Below are positions 236 to 50,100 of a DNA stretch of 64,000 nt, piece by piece (position 1 is the stretch's first letter; each line of letters starts with the position of its first letter). The notes beneath the pieces are model-generated. The model had not been told where the DNA came from. It searched no databases and saw only the letters and a program-made list of their open reading frames with translations. The translations under genes were made by a program, and so were the position numbers. Source of the DNA: Amoebophrya sp. A120 (lineage: Eukaryota; Protista; Dinoflagellata). Location: NCBI GenBank assembly GCA_905178155.1, contig CAJINV010000006.1, positions 2,088,230-2,152,229 of the forward strand, read 5' to 3'.

Positions 236-3200
236 TTGCCGGCGCGACAGGAAGAACCACGACCGAGCGACAGCAGCAGCAGCAGAAAGATAACCCCCAC
301 CGTAGATGAAGAAATACAAGTAGAGGCCAGTACCACCACCACGTCAACAATCCCGGTCCGAAATTCTCTGACCGGGGAGACAATTCTGGATTTTCCCAAG
401 CAAAAACTACCTGCCCCGCCCGTCTTTCCGTCTCAACATCTCGGTGCCGCCGTCCTTGCCTCGTCCTCGACCTGCTCTGCAGCAGTAGAGGCTTCTGCTT
501 CTCCTTCTCCGCCGGCTGGAAATAAATTTATTGGCTCTTGCTCTTCGTTGAATTTTTTATTACGAACCGAGTTTTATACCGACGAAAGGGAAAAACAAGG
601 AGCTACACGACGAGTCGGAGAAATAAGCAACAGACAGTGCAGTAGCACTGCACAAACTTCTACGGTTCAAGACTTGATCAACAGTGTTCGGGACCTGAAA
701 TCCATTGCTGCCTCGAGTGGCAAGGAGGTAAAGATTTCAGCGACGTACGAAAGTGGAGGTCCTGCTGCACCACCGCAAAAATCGCCCCCATTAGGTCGTC
801 CCAGCTTCCTGGACCCCCGAGAAAAGGTGGATTTCACCGGAAAAACCAACTACTTCGCAACCATCCTTCCCCAGACCCTGCTTGCGTCACACTTCCAAGA
901 GCTGGCGAATGACGCTTTAGTTGAGGACGCGGACTGCTTCTGGAAGAAGTTTTTCGGCGATGATGATGATGATATTGCAACAGGTAAAAATGTTGTTGCG
1001 GACGAAGATCTTCGTACAAAAACAAAACCAGCACCGGGGAGGTCGTCCTCACAAGGTCCACAACTTGATGCCGGTCTCGGTGGTCCTGCACCTGCTTTTG
1101 TCTCCCCTGCGGAAGTCGAATTCCACAGACAGCACGTGCTTTCCGCACTTCTTGATGAAGGTGCAAATGCGGACGTCGACGAAGCGCAATTGCTCCCACG
1201 AGGACGACACGCGATCACGACGGGGCAGCTGTTGCAGCGATTCATTCAGACGCAAAACTTGATTCTATCAAGTGTAAAAATGTCTGGGTCTGGAAGAATG
1301 CAACCTGTCATGCTAAATCTGAAGCATGCAAAAATCTGTGTTGCATGATTACCAAAAGTCGTCCTGTTTTGACCAAGTCGAGAGGGAGTTTCTCATGCAG
1401 GATAGGCATGAGAAAGATCGCACAGAATCTGTCATGCTAGGTCCTGCATTCCAGACCTTATGGGTCATGGAAAAGCTGCATGACAAGTCGCGCATTCTTC
1501 CAGACCCAGACATTTTTACATTTGATAGATTCCAGATGAAGACGAAAGGGCAGCAGTGAAAACCGCTTTGGAAACAGATACCGGGGTGTTCCACAAAACT
1601 GCTCAACTACAGGACGTGTGCAATATTAAAAGTGATGGCTCACCCTGGTCCCACCTTCAAGATACTACCGGCGCCACGCTGGAAATCTTTGCTAAAGATG
1701 CGTCCTCCGCGAAAATAAAACCGAGCGCAGATGACGAGATTTTTCAATCTGCGATTTGGTCCGAGACCTTACGGCAAGGTGGGGATAGGTACAAAGACTT
1801 GTTGTACTACAATTCTGGTGGTGAAAACAAGATGAAACGGAAGTACCAGCGCGACGCAGAAGACAGTCCTCTCATCCCGCCCACTTTTCTCAACCAACTC
1901 GCGAAATTGTTGCAGCAGGAAATTTTCGACGCTCCTGCTGTCCCGGAGTTTTCCGTGCCGATCTTGCATCAGATACTGGGTGGAGATGATGATGAAGGGT
2001 TGCTGAATTATGTTGGTTTCGAGGATAGTACGACGAGGCCCGCCAACGCTGGTGCTGGACCAGCAGCAGACGCAGGGGGATCTTTCATCCGGAGCAGGCC
2101 GCCAACAGTCAAATGGCGGGTGAAAGAGATGGAGATTCATTCCAACACTGGATTGAATGACATGGAAATGGGCGAGAATGGTAAGATTTCGGCCCGCACA
2201 AACAGGTACAGGACGGACCCGCCAATCACCGTTGAGGATTTCGTATCCTGTGCAAAAGTATCGTACTAGTAGAAACCAGCCATGCTCCGGCTGCCGCCGG
2301 AGCGCAAGGCTGTTGGGCCGGGGCAAGACTGTTTGCCGATCGGACCACAACCCCGCGGGCCTATGCACAACGAAACATATTGCGCCTCGCCAACCCGCAG
2401 GACCACTTGCGCGCTTCCCGCGCCTGTGGGCGCTCTGCGCAGGGAGCAGCTGCAAAGAACACCGGGGGCGAACAGAAGCCGCCCGGCGGGAGAGGGTAGC
2501 GCGAGAGGGTGGCGCGAGAGGGTGCGCGAGAGGGTGGCGCGAGAGGGTGGCGCGAGAGGGTGCGCGAGAGGGTGGCGCGGAAAGGCGCCGAACAAAACAG
2601 CTCCGCGAATGGCCTGCAGTGCCAAATATGGGTAGTGCCATGCGGATTCGCGCCCGCTTCTTTGTGTTTTACCCTCTCGCAGACCTCTCGCAGACCCTCT
2701 TTTTGGCCTCTTTTGGGGGTCCCCGCTAATAATCCGGCTATACTCGCGGGTAGAGGTCGACAGAGGTGGCCGAGAGGTGGCCAAGAGGGTCCGCGAGAGG
2801 TCGCCCCTTATTCGCGCCACCTCTCGCCACCTCTGTCGACCTCTCGCGCCCCCTCTTTTTGACCTCTCTGCACCCTCTGTGCCACTTAGGCGGCGCCTAA
2901 GGGTGGGCCCTTACTGTGGGCCTCATTCGCGCACCCTCTCGCGGACCCTCTCGAACGGGGTCCCGCGCCACCTCTCCACCTCTGTCGACCTCTTTTCTAC
3001 CTCTGTCGACCTCTTTTTTACCTCTCGGCCACCTCTCTGGGACCCTCTGTCTACCTCTTTTTTCGCATTAATATAATGTATAAGTAATCGCAATACAAAT
3101 TTCCTTAGCATTAAAAATAAAGTTTGTAATGCGGATTTGCCTTACGAAAAAAAATTGTAATGCATGACTGCGATGAGTACGAGTAGTACGATACTTTTGC

Positions 3201-5110
3201 ACAGGATATTTCGACTATGAATTCCGCCGCAGACTGTTCGACAAACAGATGTGGGACTTTGTATGCATTGCAAAAATGTCTGGGGCTGCTGGAAGGTAGT
3301 AGCAACTTGTGATGCGGATTGTGGAACGAACAATAACAAAAATCTGCGTTGCGTTGTCACCAAAAGACGTCAGATTTTTGTGTCCACGATCGGATTGTAT
3401 TTCTCATGCAGACTAGGCATCATGGAGAGACCTTCGCAGAATTTGTCATGCTTCGCATGCATTCCAGACCTTCTTTATTCAGATGCAAAAACTGCATGAA
3501 GAAAATTCTCCAGTCCCTCTCCTCGTCGAGACCCAGATCGATGATTTGCCATGCATACTTCGCCCTGAACGACAACAGCCTAGACACCCGCGTGATTCGC
3601 ATTTTTGGCCCCTATAGCGAGGACGTCGAGACCCAACTGCGCGGGCCGCGAGTCCGCAGTGACAAAGTCTACGTCTCGGTTGCTTACACGACCAAAATAT
3701 CAAGTGCAAAAATGTCTGGGTCTGGAAGAATGCATGTTTGTCATGCTTGTCTGGCATGACTCTTAAATCTGTCATGCACGTTACCCAAGAGCTCCATTTT
3801 TCTGTGATGCAGGAACGCAGTTTGTCATGCAGAATAGGCAACACCTAGAAGCTCAGAAACTTGTCATGCTGAGCCAGCATTTGTGGCCTCATCATGAGAC
3901 GCCACCCAGCATCACAAGTTTCCAGACCCAGACACTTTTACACTTGATACAAATTTGACGTGGAGAGGCTGCGAGACCACCCAGAATACGACTACTCGCA
4001 CCATTTTAATTTCAAATCAGACCTGCGCCCGCCGGTGAGTCATCGGTGGAGCGGGCAGACGCTGATTTTCACCTACCGTTTCGATTTCAAGCACCACCGT
4101 GGCCGGAGCGAAGCGATAGCGCGTCGGCAGCAGATACCGGAATGGGTGCGCGGAGCTGAGTATCAACTGCAAATATGTCTGGGTCTGGAAGAATGCCTGA
4201 CTTGTCATGCAGGTTTTCCATGACCCATGAGGTCTGGTATGTAGGACATAGCATGACAGATTTTGTGATAGTTCTATGATGCCTATTCTGCAAGAGAAAC
4301 TGCATCTCGATTAGGTCACAAGTGGACACCAGCTTTTGGTAATCATGCAATACAGATTTTTACATGATTCAGATTTAGCATGACAAGTTCCAACCTACTT
4401 CGAGAGCCAGACATATTTGCAATGCATACCGAACAAGTGCAGGCGGACGATGCAGAGTCGGAACGAGAGCGAAAAAATCAGGCGCTACGAAATGCAAATA
4501 TGTCTCGGTTTCCTGGAAGGATGTTGCAAGGTTTGTCATGCTTGTCTGGCATGAGTAAAGAGTTTGTCGTGCGTGTCCAAGAAAAGACGCTGTTGCTCGT
4601 TATGCAAAAACGCAGTTTGTCATGCGAGAACCGCAATAACAAAGCCTCGCAAATACTTCTCATGCTTGGCGGTGCATTACAGAGCATTCGCTATAATTCG
4701 CAGCCCAGCATTACAAGGTTCCAGACGACCCAGACATATTTGCATTTGATAGGAGTTCTACCAAAACAAACTTCTCCCGCGAATCTCCGGCTTCCAACTT
4801 GACGCCTTCCCGTCACGGTACGACTTTTATTCCGTCGACCGGCTTACGGGGAAGAGCGAAATCCAGTCTATCACAAGAAAAAGCGTTAACATTAACGGTT
4901 TTCACAGATTACAGTCATGCATCACAAACGTAGCCCAACATGCATGCTATGCATGACAAATTCTGGCACGTCTTGTGATGCATTTCTGCATCACAAATTG
5001 CGTTAACGTTAACACTTTTTCCTGTGATACAGTCGGGGAAAATGCAACGGTTGCGTCTCTGGTTGGAAAATGGGCCGGAGGATCAGGACGCGAGCCCAGG
5101 GTTTGACTAA
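236..5110 (+). CDS. Hypothetical protein split by 7 introners; start uncertain
   Basis: Removing each element plus one 5-bp repeat joins ORFs 236, 1556, 3349 and 3960 in frame (e.g. NLI|PDEDERAAVKTALE; VEDF|DYEFRRRLF) through to TAA at 5108-5110. No ATG located in frame. Confidence 0.7.
1266..1527. mobile_element. Introner family A
   Basis: TIR tatcaa.tgtaaaaatgtctgggtctggaagaatgc; DR gattc/gattc. Confidence 0.92.
2244..3208. mobile_element. Introner family B carrying Helitron-like insert
   Basis: TIR tatcctgtgcaaaagtatcgtact; DR tttcg/tttcg. Confidence 0.9.
2276..3087 (-). mobile_element. Helitron-like non-autonomous element, copy 1, nested in a family B introner
   Basis: On - strand starts ttacttatacatt, ends hairpin+atggctgg; host site gcga|tttctactagt, no TSD. 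Confidence 0.75.
3262..3557. mobile_element. Introner family A (degenerate)
   Basis: Degenerate TIR; DR ctttg/cttcg. Confidence 0.8.
3698..3949. mobile_element. Introner family A
   Basis: TIR; DR caaaa/caaat. Confidence 0.9.
4161..4428. mobile_element. Introner family A
   Basis: TIR; DR ctgag/ccgaa. Confidence 0.85.
4486..4751. mobile_element. Introner family A
   Basis: Degenerate TIR; DR ggcgc/ggagt. Confidence 0.8.
4869..5029. mobile_element. Introner family C
   Basis: TIR tatcaca.gaaaaag.gttaac.ttaacg; DR cagtc/cagtc. Confidence 0.9.
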
Positions 5111-5879
5111 AGAATACAACTATGTATTGGTGAGTCGAATAGTTGGGAGATTTACAACCCTACCTGATGGACAAAGGAGGTCCTAGTAAAGCTACTTATT
5201 CGCAATTGTATAGCTCCTGCATATTGTTATTTCCTTTTTTTAGCATGGTCATCCATAATGAGATTTTGGTGCAAAAAAAGAAACCCTGCACAACTTCTTC
5301 CCACAATATTTTGCGAAAAGATTTATAATTGCGCCAAAAATTTTGTGCTCATTTTGGTGTTTACCAGTACCGCAACATTCTCTGGCCCCGCATGCAGATA
5401 TGACTCTTTGTCATCCTTTGCAGGCATGTGCCCCACCATCAATCCATATATTAGAATTTCTCTGTTCAAAATAGAGGAAGACGAAGGGCAACTTTGTTTT
5501 CCCCAGAAGTACCCATGTACGGAATCTTCGAGAGACGTCCTTTTTTTGTAAACAACAACAAAGCGAAGGGTGCAACAAGAGGAGATATCCTCTGAGAGAG
5601 TTCTTGTACAAGTCGAGTCAGGAGTGATGTGACGTCTTTATTTTTTTTTTCTTGGTCACATTGAGGAAGTTCAAGTAGATCTTCTTCTTTGATCTTTACT
5701 GATTCTCATCGTCCGAGGGGACCCGTCGCACAGAAGTTCGTTGATCTTTACTCCGCAGCGAAATAAACAGAGACTCGACGATATGCCGAGGGAGCCATGA
5801 GGTGAACAAAAATGCGTGTAGCGGCCCCCGCGACATCAACATCGGCCTCCACACGACCACCACGCCGGGCGGGGGTGCA

Positions 5880-6030: not shown

Positions 6031-6044
6031 GTGCAAATGCAATC

Positions 6045-11731: not shown

Positions 11732-14292
11732 ATGGAGCGCTTCCTCCGGAAGGTGAAAAACCTCCCCCGGGAATGGTTTTTGCCTTTCCTGAAGGACTAC
11801 GTTTTCTACGCAGTTTTCATCGTGCTTTTTTCCCAAATCTTCCAGGCACTGGATGGTATGGTGAATGGTGCAGCAGATGATGTTGAAGCAGATCCTCAGG
11901 CGGAACTTCTTTCACACGACGACAAAGATCTCGCTCTCGTCGATTCCCGGATTCTCCTCATCGCGATTACCACCTTCCTCTGGGCCTGGGTGTTGATTTT
12001 TTTCTACATGGCGCTGCAAAAGTCGGAATATTTGTTGGAAACCAGTTCTCTGGTGCATGGGCTCAGCACGGAGATGCGGAACACGTACACCCTGCCGATA
12101 TGCAGCGGAAAACTATTGTATCAACCGGAGTCTAGTTGGTCAGCATGAAGAATGAAATTCAAATTTGCAATACCTGTTAGCGTACAAAGATAGATCTGTC
12201 ATGCTGCACGACTGGGAATCATTACAACTACGACTACGATACTTTAACTTTTGCAATGCATAGCCGAAGTTCATTGGCGAAAAACTGTGCTTCGACGATG
12301 TCAAGTGGAACTGCCTGCGGAACCAGGTTGTGTACTATCCTGTGCAAAAGTATCGTACTCGTGGTAATTGCAGTATATGCATTGCAAAGTTCTTTCTCAA
12401 GTCAAATCCGCATTACAAATTTCATTCCCCATGCTGAGGAAGTTTGTCATGCGATTTCTACTAGTACGATAGTTTTGAAATTCATATGTACTTCGTGCTC
12501 GCGATGTTTGTTTTCCGCTTATTCGCAGTGGACTCCTTCGCTGCCGCGCCGGCGAACTATGACAGTGCACAACTCCACCGCCTCCTCGTCATTTGTCATG
12601 CAAAACCTCAAATCCAGTCGCTCCCTTATGGCACTGTTTGCATGACAAGTTGTGGTAGCCCAAATAGCACTACACTTGAGTGATGTAAATTTGTCATGCA
12701 AAACCGGCACTCTTGCTGATGCTTGTATTGCCGTTCATGCTATACAAACGAGGGAAAGCGGGAGCTGTGCACTCTCATACGAACGTAATCGAGGTCTTAA
12801 TCGGTGTCGTCGTGTACATGGTCGTATTTGACGTCTTGCTCTCCATTGGCCACCGGGTTTTGCACACGCATCTGTATTTCTGGCACCGGCAGCACCATTC
12901 CCAAAGGGGGAGCCTGCCCGCGGGCGGATGGTAGTACTAGATTTTGGCTTTTTTTGGCCCACCTGGAGCCCACTGTTTGAGAATTATACCCGGGATGTGG
13001 ACCGCTACAGATGTAGGTTGTGCAATAATAATTTACCGCGTCATCATCTTCGTCGGGTTGACGACGAATGTCACAAAAACACGGCATCATGAAGACAACT
13101 CACTTCTTGACTTCGCAGGTACATGCACATTTGCGACCTGTTTATTGAGCTGTGGATCCCGATTTTTCTCCCGCCTTTGCTCTTCAAGGCAAACTGGCTT
13201 ACCATCTGGACCTGGCTTTTTCTGGTCGAATGGGACGGGGTGCACACGCACTCGGCGCTGGACTTATATCATATGTAAAAACGTCCCCACCCCATAGTCG
13301 AGTTGGGAACTTAGCAGCACAAATCCAGAAGTTTTGGGAGCCACGCATGACAAGTTGCAGTCCGTAGTGTAGCTCATGTTAGCAAGGACAATCGCAAATC
13401 AAATCCGTCTGCTTATCCTGTTTACAGCATCACAAATTCCAAAATGCGATTAGTAATGCCTGGCATGGACATGCGCATTACAAATCTTCCTGTCATCGTA
13501 AATCTGCATGACAGCTCTCGGCTGGGGACGTTTTTACATAGGATAACTTACTCCCCGGCATCATCCCGGGCCCGAAGCGGCACTGGCTGCACCACATGCT
13601 ATGCAGTGCAAAAGCATCGTACTCGTGCTAGTAATTGCGTTTATGCATCACAAATCTTTTTCATAAAGGTAAATCCGCATTACAGATTTTCTTTCTCATG
13701 CTGAAGAAATTTGTATATGCATGTATAATAATGCGATGCCTGTCCTTTTGCACTTTATACATGCTCTATTTCTGCAATTTCGGACCGGGACTAGGCGACT
13801 ACTTTCTGGACACAGAGTCGCGGCCGATCCGGATTTATCCACAGGAAGTAATTTATTCCCGTACACGTCGTACAAAGTTCATCACAAATGTAGTAGCCAA
13901 CAACTCACAGCATGTTGATGCCACTTCTCATGCTCTACTAGGATCGAAGGCAAGCTTTGTCATGCAGAAGCCGCATAATTTGCACGTCGTGTATAGGAAA
14001 TTTCCTGTGGATAGGATTTGCGACGAAGTCATGGAGAAGCTTCCGAAGGATGGGGAAGAACGCAGTGCGGTTGGTGGGGGCAGTGATATGGATGTCGCGG
14101 CTCAGATCGTCGAGAAAAACAAGGAGTTTGTGAGAAGCAAGACAACACGGGATCTGCTCACCAGCGTGCAAGAGTTTAAGCGGACGCAGAGAGGTAAGTA
14201 CTTAAGTAACTGTACGTTAGATCTACTGCTCGAGATCACGACCTAGCTGTTTTTGTCGTGTACTCTTCGTTTTTGCAGCTAGGTGGTCTTGA
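11732..14292 (+). CDS. Fatty acid hydroxylase / sterol desaturase superfamily membrane enzyme
   Basis: Spliced protein has His boxes HRVLH, HRQHH, HTHS and HWLHH, then NFG..D..., plus several hydrophobic segments. 6 introners and GT-AG introns 12931-13118 and 14194-14278. Ends at 14246 if the last intron is not used. Confidence 0.85.
12099..12262. mobile_element. Introner family B (degenerate)
   Basis: DR gccga/gccga; tat...ata ends. Confidence 0.85.
12336..12486. mobile_element. Introner family B
   Basis: TIR; DR tgtac/tgtac. Confidence 0.9.
12558..12779. mobile_element. Introner family I
   Basis: TIR tatga.agtgcaca.ctcc; DR cgaac/cgaac. Confidence 0.88.
13267..13545. mobile_element. Introner family E
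   Basis: TIR tatc.tatgtaaaaacgtcccca; DR actta/actta. Confidence 0.9.
13600..13759. mobile_element. Introner family B
   Basis: TIR; DR catgc/catgc. Confidence 0.88.
13836..14013. mobile_element. Introner family G
   Basis: TIR tatccacaggaa; DR ggatt/ggatt. Confidence 0.88.
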
Positions 14293-32100: not shown

Positions 32101-34933
32101 GAGGAAGAGGGTGTTGTAGCAGGGGGAGGAGTTTCTTCAGTTTTACTCGGCTAGTTTGGAGTAGAGCTACAACTGTGCTGGCTTGTTAATACACTTCATG
32201 TAGTCAGCACCCACGCAAATCTAAGGAAAAAAACGACATAGACAATAGAGCTTTCGCATCTCATCCACCAGGGACAACTCGCCGATAATCATTTATTCCA
32301 CAGCTATACCAAAACGAGGCTTGTTTCGTGCTTTCAAGAAAATTTTATACTCGTGTCGAACAAAATATCACCGTGTCGGTTAGCCGTAAGGCAGCAGCTA
32401 AGACAGATTCACAGCAAATTCAAATATACGATATACGCTTTCGATCGCCGAAGAGTCCTTACACAGATATTACCACATCCACATTTTTACTGCAAGAGTC
32501 GCACATCACAATCACTGTAGCAAAACTACTATAAAGCGCATCAGACTTCACTCACAAGACGAAAGTTTCATTCGGATCGATAGGTGACAAGGTAGTTGTC
32601 GTATTGTAAAAACGCCTTTAGGTAGTTGTACTGCCGAGATGATGCACTCTGAAATTCATCTCGGACTACGACGATGCAACAAATGAACTTGATGCTACAT
32701 CAAATTATAGTCGCACACATCCTACCCTGTTAGAATGAACGCAAATGTATCAACTGTGACGCTGCTGTAAGTGCCTCTTTCTACCATTTCAAAAATGTCT
32801 TTTTAACTCTGCTCTGTCGGTTCACAACTCGTCTCCTGAGTCTGCTTTTTTGGAATATGAGAAAACTGCACCTGAAAGTGGAAATGGAAATCAGAAAAGC
32901 GAAAGGTATGAAAAAAGCGGCTGCAGAGTATGCCCGTTGTGTGGGCCGCGGCATTTTAATGATAGTAGATGACGCACACACCGTCGTCAGCCGGGACGAT
33001 CATTCACGGACGTGCTCACGCCCTTCTGAAGCTGAACATAACCAGCCGAGTTTTGTGCTCACTGTGTGCCAGATGATCCCCAGTATAACTGCGCAAACTC
33101 AGACAGCCTCCCTCACTTGACGATCTGGGTGCGCAGCCGCGTCGGGCGTGCTCCAACGCCCGGCCGAAGGAGTCACAAGCAGCGCGGGGCCGTGGCGCGA
33201 CCAGCGTGCCGCGCCCCCATATTGCAAGGGAGCACACAGGCGGGGACGCCGCCCGAGCTGCGGCGCGTTTCGTCATTGGCTGCGTCGCGGATTGGCCTGC
33301 AGGGGCGGCCCCGACGATTGGTGGGCGGGGCGGATTTTGATGGGGGTCAGGGGGTCGCAAGTTGGGGCCCCGTCATTATTGAGGCATCCTACGCCACCCC
33401 CCTGGGGAGCGGAGTCCCCGCGGAGGCGCCGGACGGGGATGCAGGGCGCCGGCGTGTTCTTCAGGGGCGGGGGCACGGGGCCCCCGGGGTGGCCCTTTGG
33501 CGGTGTGGCGTCGTGCCTGTTCGGCCCCCCGCCCCCGCCCGCGCGCAGGCCGGCCCATCTAGGCCGGAAAAGTTTGTTGAAGTCACGCTTACCGAGGTGA
33601 ACAGCGCAGCGGCGGCGGGGGCGAGCGGTTTTGTCGGCTAATATATATGGCCGCGCGGTTGCTCCGCCCGCCGGCCGACCCCTTTCGTTGTTCGGTGCTT
33701 GACCGCCGTCCGGGCCCTCTCGCTAATCACATTGCATGAAGAACAGCGCGCGGCCAACTTGCGCCGGCTGCGTGCGCAGCCCGCTCGGTGCAGTTGCCCG
33801 AAGAAGAGGAGGCCGTCGCGAAGGTTGAGCAGCTATGGCGAGGCTGGTGCGTCGATTAAGGGGACGGGCGGCGCACCCTTGGCGAGCCGGCCGACGCCTT
33901 CAAATCAACGAACCAACGCGACCAGGGCGCATCGGGGGCGGGCCGGCGGAATGCAAACGCCCGCCCGGCGGCTGGCGCCGGGATTGGTGTACCGACCCCC
34001 GCGGCGCCCCACGCGTTCGCGATGGGCCGCCGAAAATGAAACGCCGGAAAATTGGCGACGGCGCCCCCCCGGCTGACAAGGTTGCGAAGGACAGGGCCGC
34101 GGTGCGGCCGCACGTCCGTCGGCCCCCCCCTTCTTTGTTTTCGCGCGCGGGCGCTTGCGAATAGTGCCCGCCCCCCCCCCTTGTGTGGGCTGTGGTTGCG
34201 CGCGTATTTGTGTCCGCCCCCCTTTCACTCCGCCCCAAATTGTAGAGGCGCGCGGCGCAGTCGGGGCGCCGCCGGAGAGAGATAGAGTGGCGCGGCTGGG
34301 TCCCCGGCCCGGCCGGCATCATCTGGTGGATGGTTGGCTTGGTCGGCGTGGTCATTGGTTCCTTCGTCTTCTGGCCCATTACAACTTGGTTTGCGCCCAG
34401 GCTCGCCCGCCGGCTTGCTAGCTTGGCTTGTATTGGGGCGCCGTCGCACCCTGCAAACGTGGTTGGGTGTCCGCTGCCTGGCGTCGTGAGTGAATGAAGC
34501 AAGGCCCGCGGCCGGGCCTCTGTCAAAGGCCCCCCGTGGCGGGCCTAAGTGTGTTTATGTGTCTGTGGGCATGGAGGCCTTCTCGCCCTGCTCGTACGTT
34601 GTTTCTGTTCATCTCCATTTCGGCGAGATTATTGCTTGTTGGCTTGCATTTGGGCCGTTCCTGTTTCTTAATCAATGTTTTCACAGGCGGATCCTGCTTT
34701 CATTGTCACGGTTTCACTTCTCCACGGTAGCTCATAGCCTTTTCACGGTCGCCGGCAATGCCTACGCGTGCTGTTCGCGTGAAAAAGATCCATTTGTGTA
34801 CGTACGCAAGCTCGTCGCTTTCTTGACTCTAAATTAAGGATTTTCTTGTTTCCGCTGTTGCTCGTCTATTTGGTGTTGTCGTGTATTTCGGTGTAGTTAA
34901 ATTCTCCTTTACATACGCATCCCCCAGCTCCAG

Positions 34934-37900
34934 ATGGTGATCGTCGGCGCCGTCCCGCACGAGCGGGGTTTTAACCAGCAGGAACTCCAAAATTACCCAC
35001 CGTCTACATCTAGCGGTGTTCGTGTAGAAACCGGCCGCTTCGCCTCCTCCTCCTCGAGCTCATCAACAGCACCACAGTACCCCACCAATTACAATGCCAA
35101 CCCCTACTCAACATCAACCCGAAACACCCCTTCCTACCGGCAGAACCAGTCCAGCCCCTCCCTCACTAAACGCATCAAAAATTTTCTCCAACTCCACTGT
35201 CGGGACTTCAAGGCGCCATTTAAGGTTTTGATTGAAAAAACCTGCTGGTGTTACCCTTCCAACCAGTTGAAGAAGAAAAGATCGCTGTATCATCAACTGG
35301 TGGAGCTCGAGGAAAACGAGGAGGATTGTACAACAGCCTCACCAGTTTTGTTGGAGACGCAATACTATGCATTGCAAAAGCATTGCACTAGTGCTGTGGA
35401 TCGCATGACAAATTAGCTCAGTTGTATGAGTAGATATGGAATCTGTCATGCTGAATTGCCTTGGGATGGAGGTTTGTAATGCATGACAGCGATTACTACC
35501 ACGAGTGCGATACTTTTCTTTGCGGTGGATAAATGCTTGGTGGATAAGGTCGGAGATTTCTTCATCTACCTCGCGATGGCGTTGATGGGCTTTTTTCTCG
35601 TGAAGGTGATCTTGCAAGACAATGATAACAACGCGAACAAGACCGGCGTGAAGATAAAAGACGATCCCGGAATTGAGAAGCATCCTTTCGAGGTTTTCGA
35701 TTTTGAGTATCCTGTGCAAAAGTATCGTACTCGTAGTAATCGCCATCGCGGTCATGCATTACAAATCTCCTTCTCAACCTATATCCGCATTACAAATTTC
35801 ATTTTTCATGCTGAGGGAATTTGTCATGCGATTACTATATATTATATTCATGCGAAAAAAGAGGTAGACAGAGGGTAAACAAGAGGTGGCCGAGAGGTCA
35901 AAAAGAGGGCAAAAGAGGTAAAAAAGAGGTCGACAGAGGTGGAGAGGTGGCGCGGGACCCCTTTCGAGAGGGTCGGCGAGAGGGTGCGCGAGTATAGCCC
36001 GCCGAAGGACCCACCTTAAGGCGGCGCCTAAGTGCCTCAGAGGGTGCAGAGAGGTCAAAAAGAGGGGGCGCGGGAGGTCGACAGAGGTCGAGAGAGGTGG
36101 CGCGAATAAGGGCCAACCTCTCGCGCACCCTGTCGGCCACCTCTGGGCCACCTCTGTCGACCTCTACCCTCGAGTATAGCCGGACTATTAGCGGGGACCC
36201 CCAAAAGAGGTAAAAAAGAGGGTCTGCGAGAGGTCTGCGAGAGGGTAAAAACACAGAGTAGCGGGCGCGAATCCGCATGGGAGTCCCCACATTTAGCGTT
36301 GCAGGCTCTTCGCGGAGTTGTTTTGTTCGGCGCCTGTCCCCGCCACCCTCTCGCGCACCCTCTCGCGCCACCCTCTTGCGCCACCCTCTCGCGCACCCTC
36401 TCGCGCCACCCGCTCGCGCGACCCTCTCGCGCCACCCTCCCGCGCCACCCTCTCGCGCCGGGCGGCTTCTTTTCGCCCCCGGTGTTCTTTGCAGCTGCTC
36501 CCTGCGCAGAGCGCCCACAGGCGCGGGAGGCGCGCAAGTGGTCCGGCGGGTTGGCGCGGCGCAAACTCCAGCATGCTTCGTTGTGCACAGGCCCGTGGCG
36601 TTGTGGTCCGATCGGCAAACTATCTTGCCCCGGCCCAACAGCCTTGCGCTCCGGCGGCAGCCGGAGCATGGCTGGTTTCTACTAGTGCGATGCTTTTGCA
36701 TTTCATATTGGGCGGGACGCGCCGATCTTGATTATGGAAGCGTCAGGTTTGAGATCGACAAAGTTGAAAAGATTTGTCATGCATAAAATGGATACCAGTT
36801 GGAAGCCCCATTTCCAAGCGGCGCATGACAAATTTTCGGAGCACTGGAATCCAATTTGTCATGCTGCTTGGGCGCAGAAGACTGCTTTTGTCATGCTACT
36901 TTAGCAGTTCTACCTCTATCCCAAACCCAAACCCTGAATAGGCTCACAATCTGCCTCACTTGCCATCCCGGCAAGACAGGCACTTCATGCCTTGCATTTT
37001 ATGCATGGCAAATCATTTCATTTTCAACCTTGACGATTTCAATCCTGACAGATCCATATTGATTTTGGTGACCATATGCGAGATTTTGTTTTGCGGGGCG
37101 AGTTGCAAAGCCGCGGCAAGTATGTTCCGCACGCGCGAGCACGCCCTGAAACACCCCCGGACGAAGTTGATAGCGGCGAACGCGATAAGTCGCAGCTCTG
37201 CTTCGGCGGATGTTCGCGGTGCAACTGCTCCTGCAGTTGTAACAATCGGCACAACTACCTCAGCAACTACTCGCGGGCAGCCAGCTGCTGGTAATGGTAT
37301 TGCTAGTAACACATCTACTACACAACTCCCATCTGCCACCGACGTCATCCCCATTTTCCTAGAGAGAGCGAATTTAGCGGAAAAGTGGGGCATTCTGTAC
37401 CGGCCGAGTTCGGATGGCTTGGAGTGCCTGTTGGTTGACGGGATATCGTGAGAAAAAAGTGTTACAGTTACACATTGTGTTGCAGGCCAAGCAAGACAGA
37501 CAAGCTCTGTCATGCCGGATATGCACAGCAGCCTCGTTTCATAGGTGTTTTCCCGTAGGATTTCTGCATTGCAAGTTTTCTTTCTCATGCAGATAAATTT
37601 GTGTTGCTGAATTGACATACAAATGTGGAACTGTAACACTTTTTTCTTTGCATACGGGGTTGTGGATTATCAATACGACTTGGGCCCCAGTAGCACATCA
37701 TCTTCAACTTCAGGGCAGCCAACTGCGTTTCTATCGCAAGCAGCCACAACTTCGCAACTCACCCCGGCCGCAGTCTGGAACCAAAAGTTTAACGCCTACT
37801 TAGCAGCAGACAGCGCGAGGTTCGGAGTGCTTCAATTTGGGCCAAGGAATAGGGTATCAACTGCACCAAATATGTCTTGGTCTGGAAGAATTGGGGAGTT

Positions 37901-40900
37901 TGTCATGCGGATTTTACATGACACACGATATCAGCCATGCACACTCTAGCATCAACACAGGTTGCAGCGCGAAGGCTTGGTCATCCCAATCCTGCATTAG
38001 AAATGCCCTCTACTTCGGGTTGCTGCAAGAGTCTCCGTTGCTTTTGCTGCTCATGCAATACAGATTTTTTCATCATCGAAAGTTAGCATCACAAGTTTCA
38101 TTCTCTCCAGACCAAGATGACACATTTGCATTTGATATAGCGAGATAGATTTCTCGTTAGACCACGACTTGGCGATATTGGCGGTCAACGATTGCTATGC
38201 ACTGCAAAAGCATCGTACTCGTAGTAATTGCTTTTATGCATGACAAATTTCTGTCCCAAGCCGAATCCGCATTAGAAATTTCATTTCTCATGCTGAGAAA
38301 ATTTGTCATGCGGTTCATACTAGTGCGATCATGCTTTTGCAGTGCATAATTGCCACGCGGACGTTTTCTCCATGCAGAAGGAGTTGCTCACGAGTTTTTC
38401 CGTAGCTTTGTATTGCCGGCGAATCAACAAAGACACCATTCATATGGAGAGAAAAAAGTTTGTCACAGTCACTAACTTGCAGGTTTTGCATTACAAATTT
38501 TCTTAGCATCACAAACTTTCCTTGTATTGCAGAAACACTAGGGAAATCCCTTACGAAGTTTGGCTGTGATGCATTTTTACGCATGACAGCCAATTTTGTA
38601 TTGCAAAAATGCGCATGAGTGATCGTGACGAACTTTTTTTGTTTGATAATTCACGAGATGGATAGTGGAAATAATAGAACGGGTTCAACGTCTACTAACG
38701 ACGTGCTCCGTCCTCCAGTCGGCGCAAGCAGTGACGATATTTCTTCACGAAGGGATGTTGATCAACAGATGGGTGCGAGTCACTTTCGGAACCCTTCTTC
38801 CGTGATGGTTCTCATGGACCACAGAGTAACTACAACGAATGGAGAAACAAACGAGAATGGAGATGAAGGCAACGGCACAAGCACCATAAGCAACACCACC
38901 ATGCAGCGAATCAGCGAAACAAGAACTGACCAGGAACAGCAGCAATCCACTTTATCCAGAACCTTCTCCATCACCAGTTTTGAGGATGAAGACCTGGTAA
39001 CGCTGTATCAACTGCAAACATGTCAATGAATGTCTGGGTCGGGAGAAATTATTAAACCTGTGTTGCGTGGGTGTCAAACATAATGAAATTGAAAAATCTG
39101 TATTGCATGAACAGCAAAAGCTCGACACTTTCGCCATGCAAAGTCGCAGTTTGCAATGCGTGCTGCGCATGAGAAAACGATTGAAAATCTTGGACAGAAA
39201 TTTGTCATGCTTCAGTGCACTTAATGGCGCACTCAATCATGATCATTCAGCATTACAAGTTTCCAGACCCGGACGTGTAATTTGCATTGCATTCACTAAG
39301 CCGCTGGATTATTTGCGGAATGATTTTCGGATGGATCACCCTGATCCCAACGTTTATGGAAGCGTCAGGTTTGAAATCGTCACAGTTGAAATAATTTGTA
39401 ATGCATGAAATGCATGACGCGAGGCATGTGTATTGCAGAGCAGGCAAGTGAGGCCGATTGTAAGCCTGTTTGGGGTTAGAGCTCGAGCTGCTAAAGTAGC
39501 ATGAGAAAATCCCTCTTCTTTGCCTAAACAGCATGACAAACTGGATTTAAGGACCACCAAAATTTGTCATGCGCCACTTGGAAACTGGGTTCCAACTGGC
39601 ATCCATTCCATGCATGGCAAACTATTTCAACTTTGTCAATTATTTCAATCCTGACACATCCATAACGCTGCTGATCAAACCGCACTTCTTCAAGAGGCGG
39701 CAGCAATTGTTTCGAGAGGTTTTTCTGAATGCGGGCGGAGCAGCGTCCTCAGGATTCAACCTTTTCGTCAACAATTGGAAGAACTTCATTCTCCCACTCT
39801 GGCTTTTTCTCTGGGTGGTCGACGGGATAGAAATAATGGCACATGTGCGCTTGTTGGGCCCGCCGTTTGTGTACTTCCTGTCCACGCACGTGGTTTTGGC
39901 GAGTGTGGTCGTAGTGTTGGGGATGCGGTTATGATCCACAAAAGAAGACCCCATCTTGTTCATCCATTTTTTGCATGACAGGTACGGGATTTTATGGATG
40001 TTTTGCATGGCAAATTCGATGGGAATGGGTGCTTTTTTTCTGGATAACGGCTGCAGCAGAAGGATGAGGAATTGGTTTTGGAACAGAGGCGGATTCGGGA
40101 CGGGGAGTTTCTACTTGGCAGAATTTCTATCCTGTGCAGCAAAGTATCGTACTCGTAGTAGTTGCAGTCATGCACTACAAATCTCCATCCCAACGCAAAA
40201 CAGCATGACAAATTCCATTTGTCATGCTGAGCTAATAATTTGTATTGCAATTACTACTACGTGCGATGCATTTGCAGTTCATAATTTCTCATGCTGGACA
40301 AGAAGACGTTGGCGTTGCTGTAGCGGTCGAGGAAACCACCTCCTCTTCATCCTCGGCAGCAGGTGATGCTGACGGGGACCCCGGCGGAAAAAAGGAGAGC
40401 GAGGTAGAGAAAAGATGTGATGCTAGTACAACATCTTGTTCATTCCCGCTACGACCGGTCAGAACAGCGCCAGGACTCTTTGTTGCTAAACAACACTTTG
40501 GTCGTTTGTGACGGCATAAGCTGTAGAAAATGAAAGCAAAAACCCTTAAATTCCCATGCTGGTCTTCCCAATTTCTCGTCCCATTTATCCACTTACTTAC
40601 AAAAAAAATGAAGAGGAACAAGTATTGAACATCTATGCCACATTACTTAGGTGTCCACCACTATCACAATCCTGACCCGAGACGGCATAATCTTCTACGA
40701 CCCACGCAAGAACTTCAGGCGAATTAAAGATCCCAACCAGCTTCTTCGCGGGATATCAACTGCAAATATGTCTGGGTGTGGAAGAATGCAAGTTTGTCAT
40801 GCTTGTCCCACATGATGACTCTTGAAGCTGTAATGCGTGAGCAGGAAAAGTAGTGCCTTTTGCCTGTCGTGAAAAAATGTAGTTTGTCATGCGGAAAGCG

Positions 40901-42023: not shown

Positions 42024-44184
42024 CTGAAAATGAAAATATCGTGTTGGCGACGGACCAAGACTGTCGTCGTCAGTGCGAAGAAAAGCGCGTGCATCGCTGT
42101 GTAAAGTCAGTGCAAAAGTGCCTGACCCCGCTGGCGCAAAAGAACAAGGGCGGATTGCAGAAGCTGTTCAACTGTGAATAAATGGTTTCACCACTTTGCA
42201 TTAGCTTCGTGCCTGGTGTTTGAGCTTCATCGATTTTCACGTTTGTCATTGTCCGGGCAGAATCTTTGCTCCGAATTCGCCGGCAGAGCGAGCCGGTGGG
42301 CGCGCATCTTCGTGCACAGTGGCCCCCCGGTCAAGGTGGTGCCAGGGGGCGAGAGCCGCCGGAGAGCGGCCGGCCCCATCCGCCGCGCCCGCCGCGGGGC
42401 GGCACGCAATTCAGCGGCGCCGAGCGGGAAGGGCGCGACGCCGGTACTTAAGCCCTGTCGCAGGCCGTCGGGCCCTTTCGCGCCCTCTGGTTAGCAGCGC
42501 ACGAAACCCAGCGCCCGGGCTGCGTATTTGGGGCGTCCGACCACCGCGCAGGGCGAGGGAGCGGCAGCGGCTGCAGCACGCACATGACCGCCCGGGCAAG
42601 TAGGGGGGCCCCGCAGCAAATCGGGAAGCGCCACGCCCGTGCGTGTGGCGCGCGGCAGCTGGCGCCCTAGTGGCGCCAAGGATGCCGCAGGAACGAAGTG
42701 CCTGGGACGGATGGAGAAAGCCACGCCCGGCGGTGGGGGCGGCGGCACAGACCTACTCGGCCCGCAGAGGTGAGCGCGCCGCCGTCGCGGCCCCAAGCTT
42801 GCTAGCAAGCGAGGGCAGGCGACCGCGGGGCGCCTCTAACCGGCTTGGCTTGTGCTGTGCCCAAAGCCCAGTAGAGCGCCAAAGCCCAGCAAATATGGAG
42901 GCCGCGGGCGTTGTGCCTTCAGCTGTTGCCTGGTTTGTCATGCGACTGAAAGGGCCCCCGGCTTGGCGGCAGGCAGCCGGCGGCCTGTTCGGGGCGGGGC
43001 CCTAGGGCACCAGGGGCGGGGCCGGGCGAATGTTTCGAGAAAAGTAAGGGAGGGGGCCCGGTGGACAGGTGTCGCGCCCGCAAGTCTTCCGGGTGGCAAC
43101 CCCATCCACCGGGGGGAGAGCGCCAGGCTTTGTCGGCGTGCTTGGGCGGCGCCGGCCCGCGCGGCCGATGGACCGCCGGCCGGCCCGGGCCGGCGCGTGG
43201 GTGCGAGTCGAGTTCAGCTACGCGCGGCCGGCAAAAGGTCCAAAGATAGAAGCGGAGCGCTCGCCCATGGATACCTTTGCGCTCGTTGTCTGCGCCAGCA
43301 GGGCGATGGGCTTCGATCGCGTAGCCACGAGAGCCGGGCCCGCCGGCGCTGTCCCGCCCCCCCCTTCCTGGGTTGAGGGGAGGAGCACGCCCCCGGGGGG
43401 TTTGGCCCTTTGGGTGGGCTTGTTTCCGCCGCCGGGCGGCTTCGTGTTCGCCTCGTTTGCCACCCCGACCCCCCCGGGGGGCGCCCGGTTGGCCCCCAAG
43501 CTTCCCAGCGCCTGGGGCCGCCTTCGCCTTGGGGCCCTCCCCATGGAGGGCCGCGGGGTCTTCGCCTGGCTTCTAGCGTCTTTGCCTCGCCGGCTCCGGC
43601 CTCCCGCGCAGCCTGCGGCCGGCGGGGCGAGTGTGTGTGGCCGTGCCCCGGCTGGCCCCACCCGGCAGTCGAGGTTGGCTATTGGTTGTGCTGGCTCGCT
43701 GGGCCATTGTGTCGCTCGTTGGTTGGTTTAAATGGCCCTCGTCGGACGGTCGGGGCGCGGGCCATGCTGCCCTGTAGCCGCCCGTAGGACCGGCTCCCCC
43801 GCCCGGTTGTTGTTATCCGCCGCTGCACGGGCCCTCGCGGGCAGCGCGGGCCTGCAGGCCCAGTCCCAGCGTCCGTTCGCGCACGTCATCTGTGACTTTC
43901 GTTCGCCACCGTCTGGTCAATGTTGTGTGTGTGTCCCGTCTGTGTGTTCGCAATTTTCTGAGAGGTCCAGACGCCGCAAAAGTAAAAAGAGTGGCGCCGA
44001 GCATTAACACGTATGCGCTGCATGCACTCTGCCGCGATGTAGTTCCTCTTGTGTGTAGATGTAGTGGCGTCGTGTTGGCAGTGATTGTTGTTGATCGGTG
44101 ACGCGACCCGTCTTCTTGCCTGTCCCTTCTTCCGGAGGACGGAGCTGCTCATCAATCTCATTCCACCATCAGCAATCACTCACC

Positions 44185-47100
44185 ATGGGTTGCAATCAGT
44201 CCGCGACCGCTTCCCCTGACGGTCCCCAGGCCGCGTCCCCCGGCTCCAACAAAACCAGTCCGACCGGAGAGAACAACCAGAGCCCCAATTCCAGTCGTGG
44301 CCCAAACAGCCCGGACTCCACCAGAGCAGGCAGTTCGTACCGTCGGAAAGTGAATGCGAGTAGTACAACAGGCGAACTCCAACTACAACAGCAGAACAAA
44401 AGTCCACGAAGCGCCGCAAACACACAAAATGCCCAGTCCCCACAGAACCGTTCGCAACAGCTGAAAGAGCGAAGAAATTTGGTGTTGCACCAAGCAACAT
44501 TAAACAACCCCGTCGCCCCGCCACCCGCCCCTCCCACCCCGCCAAACACAGGGCTGCCGGCTTTCTCACAAATCAACAAAACCAGTCCGAATAGAGGGCC
44601 GGCGGCAGGAGGTGGCGCAGTTTCCGGGTTTAACACAACAAGCACTACTGGCGGCGCAGCTACCAGCTCCTCAAATTTTCCCAACACATCCCCGACCTCA
44701 GCTGGTGCGCCCGCTACGCCGCAGTATAATGTGAACTACATGGTGAATACGCCGCCTATCTCGCCAACGAGTGCGGCGAGCAGAAGAACGCCAACGGGAG
44801 GCGGAGGCCCAAGCGGACCAGCCTCTGGCGGACTGCTGCTTGGTGGCAGGATATCTCAAGAAAAAAGTGTTACAGTTACACACTGTGTTGCAGGCTAAGC
44901 AAGACAGACAATCTTTGTCATGCCGGATATGCATAGGAGCCTCGTTTCATATGTGTTTTCTCGTAGGATCTCTGCATTACAAGTCTTCTCTTTCATGCAA
45001 AGAAATTTGTGTTGCTGCCTGAATTCACTACAAATGTGTAACTGTAACACTTTCTTCGTGGGATACAGGACTTCCAACAGCATCCCAAGTCTAAACCCCA
45101 ACGCACATCAGCAACAGCAAGCGCATCAACAGCATAATTTGTTCGGGCAGCAACAAGGAGTTGCAGCTCCTGGTGGTCAACAAATCTTAAATCAGCAAAA
45201 TAACAACTATAACTCTTCCCTCAGCGGCACGGCGAATTTCGGTCTTCTACAGCAGTACCTCGAGCCGTTGACAGAGTTGGAATTTCACGACTCGGATCCA
45301 GAAGAGCTGAACGGGCACTTCAGCTCACCCAGCAACTCTCCCACACAGAAGTTGAACGAACGAAGGGCGGGGTTGGGCGGCGTGTCAACGATCAACATCT
45401 CCGTCCCGCCGACACCGACGAGCGTCAGTCACATGGGTATACGCATTGCAAATGTATCGAAATCGTACGTGTGCGTCGAGTATATCTGCATGACAAACTT
45501 TTTCAAGAAAAAATGTTCAGTTGGTCATGCATATTCTGGTGGGAAAACAGATCTGTCGTGCAAGATTGCGATGAGTAAGAATACTTTTGCAATGCATAGA
45601 AGAGTAGCAGCAGGCCGACGGTGAATTTTGGCCCGGCGACGCCGACCATGGGTGGCGGAAACAATCCCACCTCGTTATCCTGAGGAAAAGCGTCCCCACC
45701 CCAAAGTTGTCATGCAAATCTGCATGCTCAAAATGTTTCTCATGCGGAGCACCATGACAAGCATGATTTGATGTTAGTCGTGTTTTCTCATTTGTAATGC
45801 TCCAATCAGCATAATAGACTAGATCTGTGATCATGCCGCTGAACAAGCTAAACAGGATTTTTACACTACGAGGCCAAATTTGTCATGCGCAGCAACCAAA
45901 TCTGGCTGATTTGTCTAGCAGATTTCCCATCTTGACTTATACGGCGGGGACGTTTTTGCTCAGGATACTCGTCCTCTACCGCACCTACGCCGACCCACGT
46001 ATGAAAGCCTCAGAATGGAAATCCTCAAAGTGGAAATAATTTGTGATGCATGAAATGCAAGGCAAAAAAGACTGCATTGCGGAGGACACAATGGAGGCCG
46101 ACTATTGTCCTGCTAGGGGTGAAGAATTGGGCTGCTGATTAGCACGACAGAAGGGCACCCCTTTGCCTAACTAGCATGACAGACACGTTTTGAGTACCCG
46201 GGAAATTTGTCATGCGCCGGCTACAAATGGCACTTCAACTGGAGTCGATTTTTTGCATTACAGATTATTTCCACTTTGAGGATTTCCAACCTGAGGCTTT
46301 CATACCACGCCTCCTCGAGCAGCACCGGCGGCGGCTTTTATCTGCAATCCCCGAAACACAGACGGATCTCTGACAGCATCAACAGAAACGTGCCGCTGTT
46401 CTGCTACAAGATTGCGCATAAGAAGGAGCTATCAACTGCAAAAATGTCTGGGTCTGGAAGATTGCCAGGCTTGTCATGCATATTCTGCATGACCCATGAT
46501 GTCTGTGATGCATGACCTAGCATAAGCATCGCAGATTTCTTTTAGGGGGTTTCCTTATGCCTAACCCGCATGAGAAATGCCCTCTCCGTGTGGGCTCCTC
46601 TTGCTGGTCACGCAATACAGATTCTTTTGGAATCCAGAGACAGCATCACAAGTTTTTACCACCTTCCAGACCCAGACACTTTTGCATTTGATAGGAGCAG
46701 AACCAACCATCCGGGACTACAGGTACTTCTAGGGGCAACAGAAGGATAAGGAAATTGATCGCGGAAAACATTGATGTGAAGCTGGGGAACATGATCGGGA
46801 AAGGCTCCCACGGCACGGTCTACGAGGCAAGGCGGGAGGATACGGGGCAGATCATTGCCTGCAAAATCACCCCGGTCGACCATCCAGAAGCGCTGAAGGC
46901 GATGATATGCATTGCAAAAGATTCGTACTAAGTACAAATCACATTACAAATTAGCTCAGCATGACAAAGGGAATTTGTAATGCTGTATGAGCTCAGTAAA
47001 AAGATTTGTCATGCATATCTGGAATTAGTACGAGTGCGATTCTTTTGCAATGCATAGATGAAAAAGGAAGTGGACTTGCTACAGCGGTTGAACCACCTAT

Positions 47101-50100
47101 CCAGTGCAAATATGTCTGGGTCTGGAACCTTGTGATGCTAAAATCTTACTGATGGGCGCACTGCAACGGGCAGCCAAGCATGACAAATCTCTCGGCTGGT
47201 GCTATTGTGTTTCGTTTTCCGCATGACAAGCTGCGTTTTTGCATGACTGACAGGAAGCCTGTTGCCTGCTTATGCATCACAGATTTATGAGTCATGCCAG
47301 ACAAGCATGACAAACTCGCACTCTTCCAGACCCAGACATATTTGCATTTGATACGACCCAAACTGCATCAACTTCCTCGGAACGCGGGTGGTTTTCACGT
47401 ATGGAAGCGTCAGGTTTGAAATCGTCAAAGTTGAAATAATTTGCAATGCATAAAATGCGACACAGAAAGTGACTCTATTGCAGAGGACCCACGGGAGGCA
47501 GATTATAGTCCTGGTAAGGGTCAAAAGTTGAACTGCCAACTAGCATGACAGAGGGCAGCTCTTTTGCCCTAAACCGCATGACAGACTCGCTTCCAGGACC
47601 GGGAAAATTTGTCATGCACCGACTACAAACTGTAGGTCTAACTGGTATGCGTTTTGTGCATGACAAACTATTTCAACTTTGACGATTTCAAACCTGACAC
47701 ATCCATATCACGGACAACGAAAATAATGGCTCACCATCTTCTCACGGACAGAAGTTTATCCACACATATTTGGAGTTCATTCCCGGCGGCACGATCTCGG
47801 ATTTGGTCCAGACGTTTGGCTATGGAATGCAAAAGTATCGTATTGGTAGTGGTACTGCAATCATGGATTACAAATCTTTTTCGTGAGGTGAATCAGCATT
47901 ACAAATTTTAATTTTATTTCTCATGCTATAGAAATAGAAATTTGTAATGCATTTTTTATACGAGTGCGAGACTTTTGCAATGCATATTGGCCGGATCGAG
48001 GACAAGTTTTTGCTCCGTTCCTTGACCTACCAGGTGACTTTGGGGCTGCAGTACTTGCACAAGAAGGGGGTCGTCCATCGGGATCTGAAGGGATCGAACG
48101 TGCTGCTAACCGTGTATGAATTGCAACCGTAGCGTACTCCTGCTACTCGTATAAATGCATTACAAATTTCGATTTCCTCAGCACGAGAAAGAAAATTTGC
48201 AATGCTGATTTACCTTAAGAAAAAGATTTGTAATGCATGACTGCAAAAATACGAGCACGATACCGATACTTTTGCACAGGATACCGTGTCCGGCGAAGCG
48301 ATTCTGTCCGACATGGGGATATGGAGGCGTCAGGTTTGAAATCGTCAAAGTTGAAATTACTATCTATTATATTCATGCGAAAAAAGAGGTCTACAGAGGG
48401 TCGACGGGAGGTGGCCGAGAGGTCAAAAAGAGGCCACAAGAGGTCAAAAAGAGGTCGACAGAGGTGGAGAGGTGGCGCGGGAGGTCATTCGAGAGGGTGG
48501 CCGAGAGGGGGCGCGGGTATAGCCGGCCGAACCGTTCACCCGAAAGCCGCGCCTATAGGGACCAGAGGGGGCTGAGAGGGTCCCGAGAGGGTAAGCGATA
48601 GGGGGATAGGGGTGCCGAGAGGTTGTGCGAATAAGGGCGAACCTCTCGCGCACCCTCTGGGCCACCTCTCGGCCACCTCTGTAGACCTCTACCGGCGAGT
48701 ATAGCCGGACTATTAGCAACACCTCTCGGGAGAGGTCAAGAAGAGGGCTTGCGAAAGGGTAAAAAAGACCCGAAGCCGCCCGGCACGCGGCCGATTTTGT
48801 TGGGACTGTTTCATGGCGCAGGCCCACACCTCTTGCGCTACCCTCTCGCGCACCCTCTCGCGCACCCCCTCGCGCCACCCTCTCGCGCTAACCGCTCGCG
48901 CCAACAGTTTCCGCCGGGAAGCCAGTTGGGAGGGCGGGGGCGGGTGTGTATGTGATCAACAGAGGGCAGCGCGGTCCCAGTTCTGCTTCGGCACCTATGC
49001 CGAGGCGGCTTCTCTTCGCCCCCGAGCTTCGTTGCAGCTGCTCCCTGCGCATAGCGCCTGAAGGCGCGGGAAGTGCGCAGGAGGCCCTGCGGGTTGACAT
49101 AGCGCAAACCGGCGCCAGTACTTCCTTCGACCTATCACGCTGTCCGTAAACTAAAGCCCTGTCGCTGCGGCCCGATCCGCAAATAGTCCTGCCCCGCCCC
49201 AACAGCCTTGCGCCCCGGCGTCAGCCGGGGCATGGCTGGTAGTTTGTCATGCATAAAATGCAGCCCTCAGAGTACCTGTCTTGCAGAGTAGGCAAGTGTG
49301 GCAGATTGCAAGCCTGTTGAGGAGAAGAAACTGAGCAGCTAAAGTAGCACGACACAAGGCGTCTTTCTTACCCAAACAGCATGACAAACTGGGTTTCGGC
49401 TCTACCCAAATTTGTCATGCGCCACTTAGAAACTGGGTCACTACTTTTATCCATTTTATGCATTACAAGTTATTTCAACTTTGACGATTTCAATCCTGAC
49501 GCTTCCATAGGGGACGGCGTTTATCGCGGTATCACAGTGCACAAGAACTCCCCGTCGTCCCCCTCATTTGTACTCATATCGTATGGACAGCAATACGAAC
49601 ACCACACCAGGTGGACGCTATGCATGACAAGTTCATAGCCTGAGTGTAGTGAGGTTCAGTAGTGTTCCCAAATTTGTGATGCAGACAGCGCCACAGACTA
49701 GCAACTGGATTTGACATTTTCGCATGACAAATGACCATGAGGGGGACGCAGAGCAGTTGTGCACTTTCATACGCGGGGAGCAAAAACGCAAATTTCTATG
49801 CGGGAGCGACTTTGTCCGCATTTCAGGGAAATGGGCGGGGTGGGAACAATAAACGGAACTCGCTGACCATACCCGGAAGTGGTCAACATTCGCAGCAAGA
49901 CAAAGACCAATTGGAGGAAACCATGCAGAATTTACTAAACGAGACCACCAACCAACTAGGGCAGTCCGCCACGATACTGATGCAAACCATGTGCGGCTCC
50001 ATTCCCTGGATGGCTCCTGAAGTGTTAACCGGAAACAACACCGGTCAGAGCAATGCTGCTTCGGGCTACAAGAAAACCGCAGATATTTGGTCTCTAGGGG

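Follow-up and report, generated by a model that had tools for sequence, protein, structure and literature searches.

The analysed window is a stretch of 64,000 nucleotides (nt) from the dinoflagellate Amoebophrya sp. A120 (assembly GCA_905178155.1, contig CAJINV010000006.1, positions 2,088,230 to 2,152,229 of the forward strand), and it contains three copies of a GC-rich, Helitron-like element, each nested within an introner. The window is eukaryotic and gene-dense. Its introners run from TA to TA and feature terminal inverted repeats (TIRs) and 5-bp direct repeats, and when each introner is excised together with a single repeat copy, the plus strand reads as a series of long open frames. The curated set comprises 84 introners in the window, which without the nested element amount to 18,757 bp, or 29% of the window. 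The three hosts are introners of the Amoebophrya type, with inverted-repeat ends, short direct repeats and a location within coding sequence. The host of copy 1 has a TIR matching at 22/22 positions and the 5-bp target-site duplication (TSD) TTTCG, while the TSDs of the other two hosts read TTGAG/TTGGG (copy 2) and GGGGA (copy 3). Coordinates are collected in Table 1.

Table 1. Element copies, structural features, host introners and host reading frames in the window.
Feature	Positions	Strand	Remarks
Copy 1	2276..3087	-	812 bp; antisense to host gene
Copy 2	35832..36675	+	844 bp; sense to host gene; copy 1 subfamily (91.6%)
Copy 3	48357..49239	+	883 bp; sense to host gene; divergent subfamily, ~80%
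AT-rich 5′ end, starts TTAC	35832..35849	+	kept in copies 1-3 and L001
13-bp minisatellite, variable copy number	36341..36459	+	complementary to AGAGG-rich repeats of the 5′ half
3′ hairpin, copy 1	2284..2303	-	
3′ hairpin, copy 2	36648..36667	+	outer stem 36639-36643/36670-36674 reaches one base short of the end
3′ hairpin, copy 3	49212..49231	+	C-G pair in place of T-A
Host introner of copy 1	2244..3208	-	family A; 153 bp empty, 965 bp filled; TA..TA
Host introner of copy 2	35708..36707	+	family A; 156 bp empty, 1,000 bp filled
Host introner of copy 3	48320..49509	+	family B; 307 bp empty, 1,190 bp filled
Copy 1 host reading frame	602..5107	+	667 codons stop-free with introners removed; 13 stops with enlarged host kept
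Copy 2 host reading frame	34931..39026	+	572 codons stop-free with introners removed; 5 stops with enlarged host kept
Copy 3 host protein kinase gene	44182..50477	+	840 codons stop-free with introners removed; 19 stops with enlarged host kept

A first-pass annotation of this DNA had placed three GC-rich copies of 812-883 bp here, and its coordinates proved exact to the base. Each copy has a GC content of 63%, and pairwise comparison (91.6% identity between copies 1 and 2, 79.5% between 1 and 3, 80.3% between 2 and 3) separates copy 3 from the other two. No fourth copy was found in the window, where the best further match is 24 nt long (43429-43452, E 0.001); it lies in an introner-free, GC-rich block at ~42300-43900. 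A metagenome scan revealed two further loci, L001, with a full 894-bp copy (L001:1637-2530) in a host of 151 bp flanked by a perfect TSD, and L002, with the 3′ part of the element only. The annotated 5′ start recurs as TTAC, within an AT-rich end, in all four full copies (copies 1-3 and L001). At the other end, the full copies terminate in a 20-nt hairpin (8-bp stem, 4-nt loop) followed by ATGGCTGG, the hairpin ending 8 nt from the terminus, and CTGG closes all five copies, L002 included. The upstream GC hairpin had likewise been read correctly, as had its compensatory change, T-A in copies 1 and 2 and C-G in copy 3; a lone compensatory pair among four sequences carries little weight by itself. 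In 70-nt pieces, this hairpin has fold z-scores of -1.8 to -2.4.

The interior of the element contains AGAGG-rich repeats and complementary CCTCT-rich repeats, and it folds much more strongly than shuffled sequences (z -8.4, 0/20 shuffles). L001 carries additional 13-bp units and a ~25-nt internal duplication near its 3′ region, thus indicating that length varies through the interior repeats and that the ends stay constant. Four open reading frames (ORFs) overlapping copies 1 and 2 gave no Pfam match, a search of copy 2 against Rfam returned only four weak microRNA matches far under their gathering scores, and the patterns of the element ends matched nothing in collections of viral or genome contigs. 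A guide-RNA (Fanzor-like) function is speculation to which the Rfam result lends no support. The element is a real family, non-coding and well bounded.

Without their elements, the three hosts measure 153, 156 and 307 bp, and their alignments with 18 family-A and 6 family-B empty relatives show no gap at the site. These alignments bear out the annotated insertion between A and T without target duplication and the CTGG 3′ end; the same junction is seen in all three window copies and, by comparison with empty hosts, in L001. One base at the junction is ambiguous, a T that is assignable to either end. Four contigs of run X1, which shows no difference from the window over 368 nt at a depth of 29 and may be the window's own source, lack exactly 48357-49239 with ends TT..GG, thus indicating that empty versions of the host of copy 3 exist. 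Nine X1 contigs with opposite-strand joints (49239-49243 to 49470-49472) were first taken as copies in the other family-B arm; they were dropped because empty hosts yield identical joints through their inverted repeats.

The end structure is that of the HLE1 class of Helitrons in most respects: insertion at A|T, no TSD, a CTRR 3′ end and a hairpin of 16-20 nt close to it. Other classes agree less well. In Helentron/Helitron2 (HLE2) elements, an inverted repeat links the ends and the site is T|T, whereas the ends of copy 2 have no such repeat and the site is A|T. The element itself has neither TIRs nor a TSD, unlike miniature inverted-repeat elements and other TIR DNA transposons, and its constant ends, missing TSD, missing tail and lack of any credible Rfam match do not fit a short interspersed element or another retroelement lacking long terminal repeats. 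Assignment to Helitrons, made from the end structure, is partly supported, and mobilisation of Helitron type is highly likely; the element is not classed as a full HLE1 member because it lacks the 5′ TC and its RepHel partner is putative. Constant ends, absence of a TSD, strong site recurrence, the 5′ TT and the one-base T ambiguity would also be expected if the element were no Helitron and a site-specific recombinase (Crypton-like or of the serine type) mobilised it in non-autonomous fashion, with a one-base T core; some CryptonV families are target-specific (PMC8869645). However, no terminal direct or inverted repeat connects the two ends, and the A|T junction, the hairpin followed by CTRR and the AT-rich left end all match HLE1, so that we regard a recombinase as very unlikely.

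The element had also been described as nested only in introners, which is true within the window, although introners contain 1,633 of its 3,732 AT dinucleotides (44%) and three nested copies out of three would arise by chance with p=0.084 over all AT sites and p=0.23 over AT sites outside ORFs. Nesting in the window alone is therefore weak evidence beyond chance. More informative is the position. Copies 1 and 2 lie at the same base of family A (GCGA|TTTCTAC, 32 nt from the host end in copy 1), and both metagenome loci occupy this base as well (2/2); copy 3 lies at GTTGAAA|TAG, 37 nt from the end of its family-B host. All five copies with readable flanks are inside introners and four share one base, even though a family-A host offers ~18 AT sites, each in two possible orientations; either one origin or targeting is thus required. 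The full site motif is present in 3/3 filled and 2/18 empty family-A hosts, a count that includes the incomplete or repeat-expanded members at 53480, 53676 and 60706, which were excluded from the identity, tree and window comparisons. Confinement to introners is well supported but unproven. An ordinary Helitron landing on random AT sites, with selection keeping the intron copies only, would make the nesting unremarkable, but it cannot yield the same base in four of five copies and in some 20 more contigs (see below); this explanation is largely refuted and we consider it extremely improbable.

The additional contigs come from run X1, which was aligned to a stretch comprising the 3′ end of copy 2 and the adjoining 22 nt. 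Sixty-nine contigs aligned, of which 27 extend past the ends of this stretch and 6 are only partly aligned. As one listed contig crosses the left end, ~20-26 go from the element through a family-A flank; copies 1 and 2 are probably among them, and single-copy depth is seen in the three such contigs that are listed. In an 84-nt contig, copy-3-type sequence continues into the family-A flank, which indicates that two element subfamilies occupy the family-A site. In another, of 130 nt, a third variant adjoins the homologous GAAA|T site of the host type at 46000/55668, a type that is 67% identical to the host of copy 3; this is a second recurring site (family B). Run X9, from another study, yielded a single contig with a family-A flank, which may be the orthologue of copy 2. 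Element contigs reach depths of 820, 326, 103, 60 and 42, compared with 26-29 for single-copy contigs; although depth is no copy number, these ratios suggest tens of element copies.

Comparison of the divergence of elements and hosts bears on whether this recurrence reflects one insertion or many. The elements of copies 1, 2 and L001 are 91.6-93.6% identical (differing by 6.4-8.4%), whereas their hosts are only 78.7-81.7% identical (differing by 18-21%), a difference with Fisher p values of 5.7e-4, 6.0e-6 and 7.0e-7. Filled hosts are as different from one another as empty ones, whose mean identity is 80.0% (105 empty-empty pairs). With the 22 nt surrounding the site set aside, identity is 75.3% among filled hosts and 76.1% in triples drawn from 15 empty hosts, whereas in the 11 nt after the site the values are 93.9% and 71.4%, with 1.1% of triples reaching 93.9%. 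The four filled family-A hosts also have four different right-end types. That hosts which have diverged much further than the element are occupied at one and the same nucleotide points to site-specific insertion and not to passive survival in a safe haven or to simple hitchhiking. The first-pass annotation's proposal of at least two independent insertions, made from the two host families, is supported. Its picture of a non-autonomous rolling-circle element in safe havens holds in that the element is Helitron-like, non-autonomous and nested; the passive safe haven does not agree with the recurrence, which is the main point that the annotation missed.

Several observations weigh against repeated insertion. 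The approximately unbiased (AU) test does not reject the grouping of the three filled hosts in a single clade (p-AU 0.053, 153 columns), these hosts share a left-end type (96.7%, compared with 85.6%, and 7.5% of triples) and a rare base 27 nt before the site, and the full family-A hosts that could be compared number three. The possible clade and the shared features could reflect hitchhiking, in which one insertion per host family was followed by copying of the enlarged introner as a unit by the introner transposase, gene conversion then maintaining the similarity of the interior or recombination with empty members scrambling the host arms. A common site would then follow automatically, and a published 27-copy Amoebophrya family of 1,143-1,191 bp, classed as TIR DNA, is of nearly the same length as the filled host of copy 3 (1,190 bp), a lead known by length only. 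Against it stand a host divergence 2-3 times that of the cargo, the four types of right end, and the sharing of the family-A site by two element subfamilies and of the family-B site by two host types; we judge hitchhiking rather unlikely. The X1 data call for caution too: one of the two unlike junction flanks listed could not be matched clearly to any introner (5 mismatches in 21 at best), the alignment favours family-A flanks because unlike ones leave ~30 nt alignable and may be missed, and the detail comes from 8 of the 69 pieces and 6 of the 9 loose-end rows. Finally, TT in place of TC opens four of four full copies, none of the 18 mentions of 'Helitron' in the family table of PMC12130899 falls in a row for Amoebophrya, and characterised Helitrons choose AT in AT-rich DNA without site specificity (PMC4778049 and PMC13286980).

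Spread by homology could also produce a shared site. After a first Helitron insertion by a transposase without target specificity, the element would reach empty family members through ectopic repair or a carried flank. Similarity among filled hosts that is limited to ~22 nt around the site is what a short co-conversion tract would give, and Helitrons are able to carry 3′ flanks (PMC4778049). However, this similarity does not decay gradually with distance, the flank is polymorphic (C/A) at a position 4 nt away from the junction, a copy-3-type element is present in both host families, and no known nuclease cuts the empty site, which makes such homing quite unlikely.

On balance, repeated independent insertion at fixed sites is likely. 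We lean, by a modest degree, towards repeated insertion of a non-autonomous, HLE1-like Helitron into introners, at two fixed A|T positions just inward of the TIRs. A mechanism is proposed in which a rolling-circle transposase supplied in trans, a putative RepHel, would copy the element, nicking at A|TTAC and stopping at the hairpin and CTGG. The target would be recognised from its local sequence in DNA that is exposed as a single strand, at places where folding back of the introner arm is possible. This is the most likely cause of the target choice in view of three features: both sites are located in an introner arm, in its inner portion, at 32 nt (family A) and 37 nt (family B) from the end; the family-A site A|TTT(C/A)TAC is a near-match of the left junction of the element itself, A|TTACTA, and on the opposite strand the family-B site has a similar word, A|TTTCAAC; and the transposase of Helraiser cleaves single-stranded but not double-stranded DNA (PMC4778049). 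With the introner ends intact, an intron of 0.97-1.19 kb would still be spliced and the insertion would be nearly neutral. More tentatively, and with belief and doubt close to balance, the transposase may recognise fixed sites in introner arms, which would make the element a site-specific Helitron that parasitises intron-making transposons at low cost in coding genes, and introns lengthened 4- to 6-fold would then need nothing but their ends for splicing.

Splicing of the enlarged introns is suggested by the host genes, as only introner removal restores their frames (Table 1); the introns of 965, 1,000 and 1,190 bp would accordingly be absent from the mRNA if the frames are a guide. The last exon of copy 3's gene encodes a protein kinase (Pfam E 1.7e-14) whose best match of 43 homologues is named Amoebophrya sp. 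A25 (57% identity), and the host interrupts the kinase at the DFG-equivalent motif, which reads DMG. This gene (44182-50477) contains 12 introners and has exons down to 20-36 nt. The exons of 20-36 nt are those around the host of copy 3. No RNA joint was present among the 15 rows listed, out of 67, from run X3, which is RNA by guess; this is evidence neither way. An insert of 0.8-0.9 kb, GC-rich and strongly folding, that lies 32-37 nt from the intron end in either orientation and leaves the frames apparently intact implies that the splice signals should lie in the end stems and in short shared motifs. Filled introners are therefore natural experiments on the unsolved splicing of the non-canonical introns of Amoebophrya.

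A 10-nt motif (TTTGTCATGC / GCATGACAAA and close variants) is common to otherwise unrelated introner families and is a candidate splicing or transposase-binding signal of these introns. Of its 162 matches, 147 fall within a set of 82 introners, 69 of which carry at least one; several of the other 15 matches lie in introner-like stretches outside this set, and the nested element has none. Left and right end types of family A are mixed between copies (for example 12336-12486, 38196-38348 and 55453-55601), which suggests recombination among them. Many members have imperfect inverted repeats and retain intact 5-bp TSDs, and the introner at 53676-53869 carries a (GAT)9 microsatellite expansion at 53799-53826. 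Introner-free blocks of 1.3-1.6 kb with a GC content of 60-72% (~23800-25200, 33100-34600, 42300-43900 and 62500-64000) lie between co-oriented genes and may be promoter regions.

Searches for Helitrons together with Amoebophrya found PMC12130899 only, although its supplementary files 13-14, the supplement of Farhat et al. and Roy et al. 2023 could hold a mention; 'nested' is absent from the main texts of PMC7789003 (Farhat) and PMC12130899, as far as these were available, and 'helitron' from that of PMC7789003. The HELIANO supplement has no entry for Amoebophrya, Symbiodinium, Perkinsus or Polarella. The literature searched contained nothing relevant on site-specific or nested Helitrons, which subscription papers could still mention. 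Supplementary file 8 of PMC12130899 lists Amoebophrya A120 families fam103 (1,143-1,191 bp) and fam135 (1,180 bp); these and other published 'TIR' introner families of ~1.1-1.2 kb may be composites of the kind described here, a comparison made on lengths only.

The interest of the element lies in its recurrence at fixed introner bases. Helitrons are usually thought to require little beyond an AT dinucleotide. A target-specific element within DNA transposons is exemplified by Tx1L of Xenopus. If site-specific insertion is correct, the strategy of R2, Dada and Pokey, which use a multicopy safe target, would extend to rolling-circle elements, and the introner sites would offer a handle on target choice by a HUH transposase.

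The hosts resemble known Amoebophrya introner elements (PMC7789003, PMC12130899) in their inverted-repeat ends, short direct repeats, non-canonical boundaries and family lengths of ~105-310 bp. The Helitron introners described by Gozashti et al. (PMC12130899) are either Helitrons that form introns themselves, in fungi and Polarella, or introners inside Helitrons, which is the reverse arrangement. With the HLE1 elements Helraiser/Helibat and wheat Xuan (PMC11417382, PMC4778049, PMC13286980), our element shares A|T insertion without a TSD, an AT-rich left end, a 3′ hairpin followed by CTRR, and the absence of TIRs and of recognisable coding sequence; it differs from HLE1 in starting with TT instead of TC and in a hairpin that ends 8 nt from the terminus, compared with the 10-15 nt quoted. 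De novo insertions of Helraiser and Xuan show a preference for AT only, whereas this element is found repeatedly at a single base of a target that exists in many copies. Closer in this respect are the Helitrons of Paramecium (PMC13085455), also an alveolate, for which the authors propose integration specificity for a repeated, tolerant target; those elements, however, have known transposase ORFs and a simple telomeric repeat as their target, whereas here the target is a defined base in a mobile intron. Dada, Pokey, CryptonV and R2 (PMC8869645) likewise use a fixed site in an abundant, dispensable target, but they do so with DDE, tyrosine-recombinase or retrotransposon enzymes; in the portion available, none is rolling-circle and no introner is named as a target.

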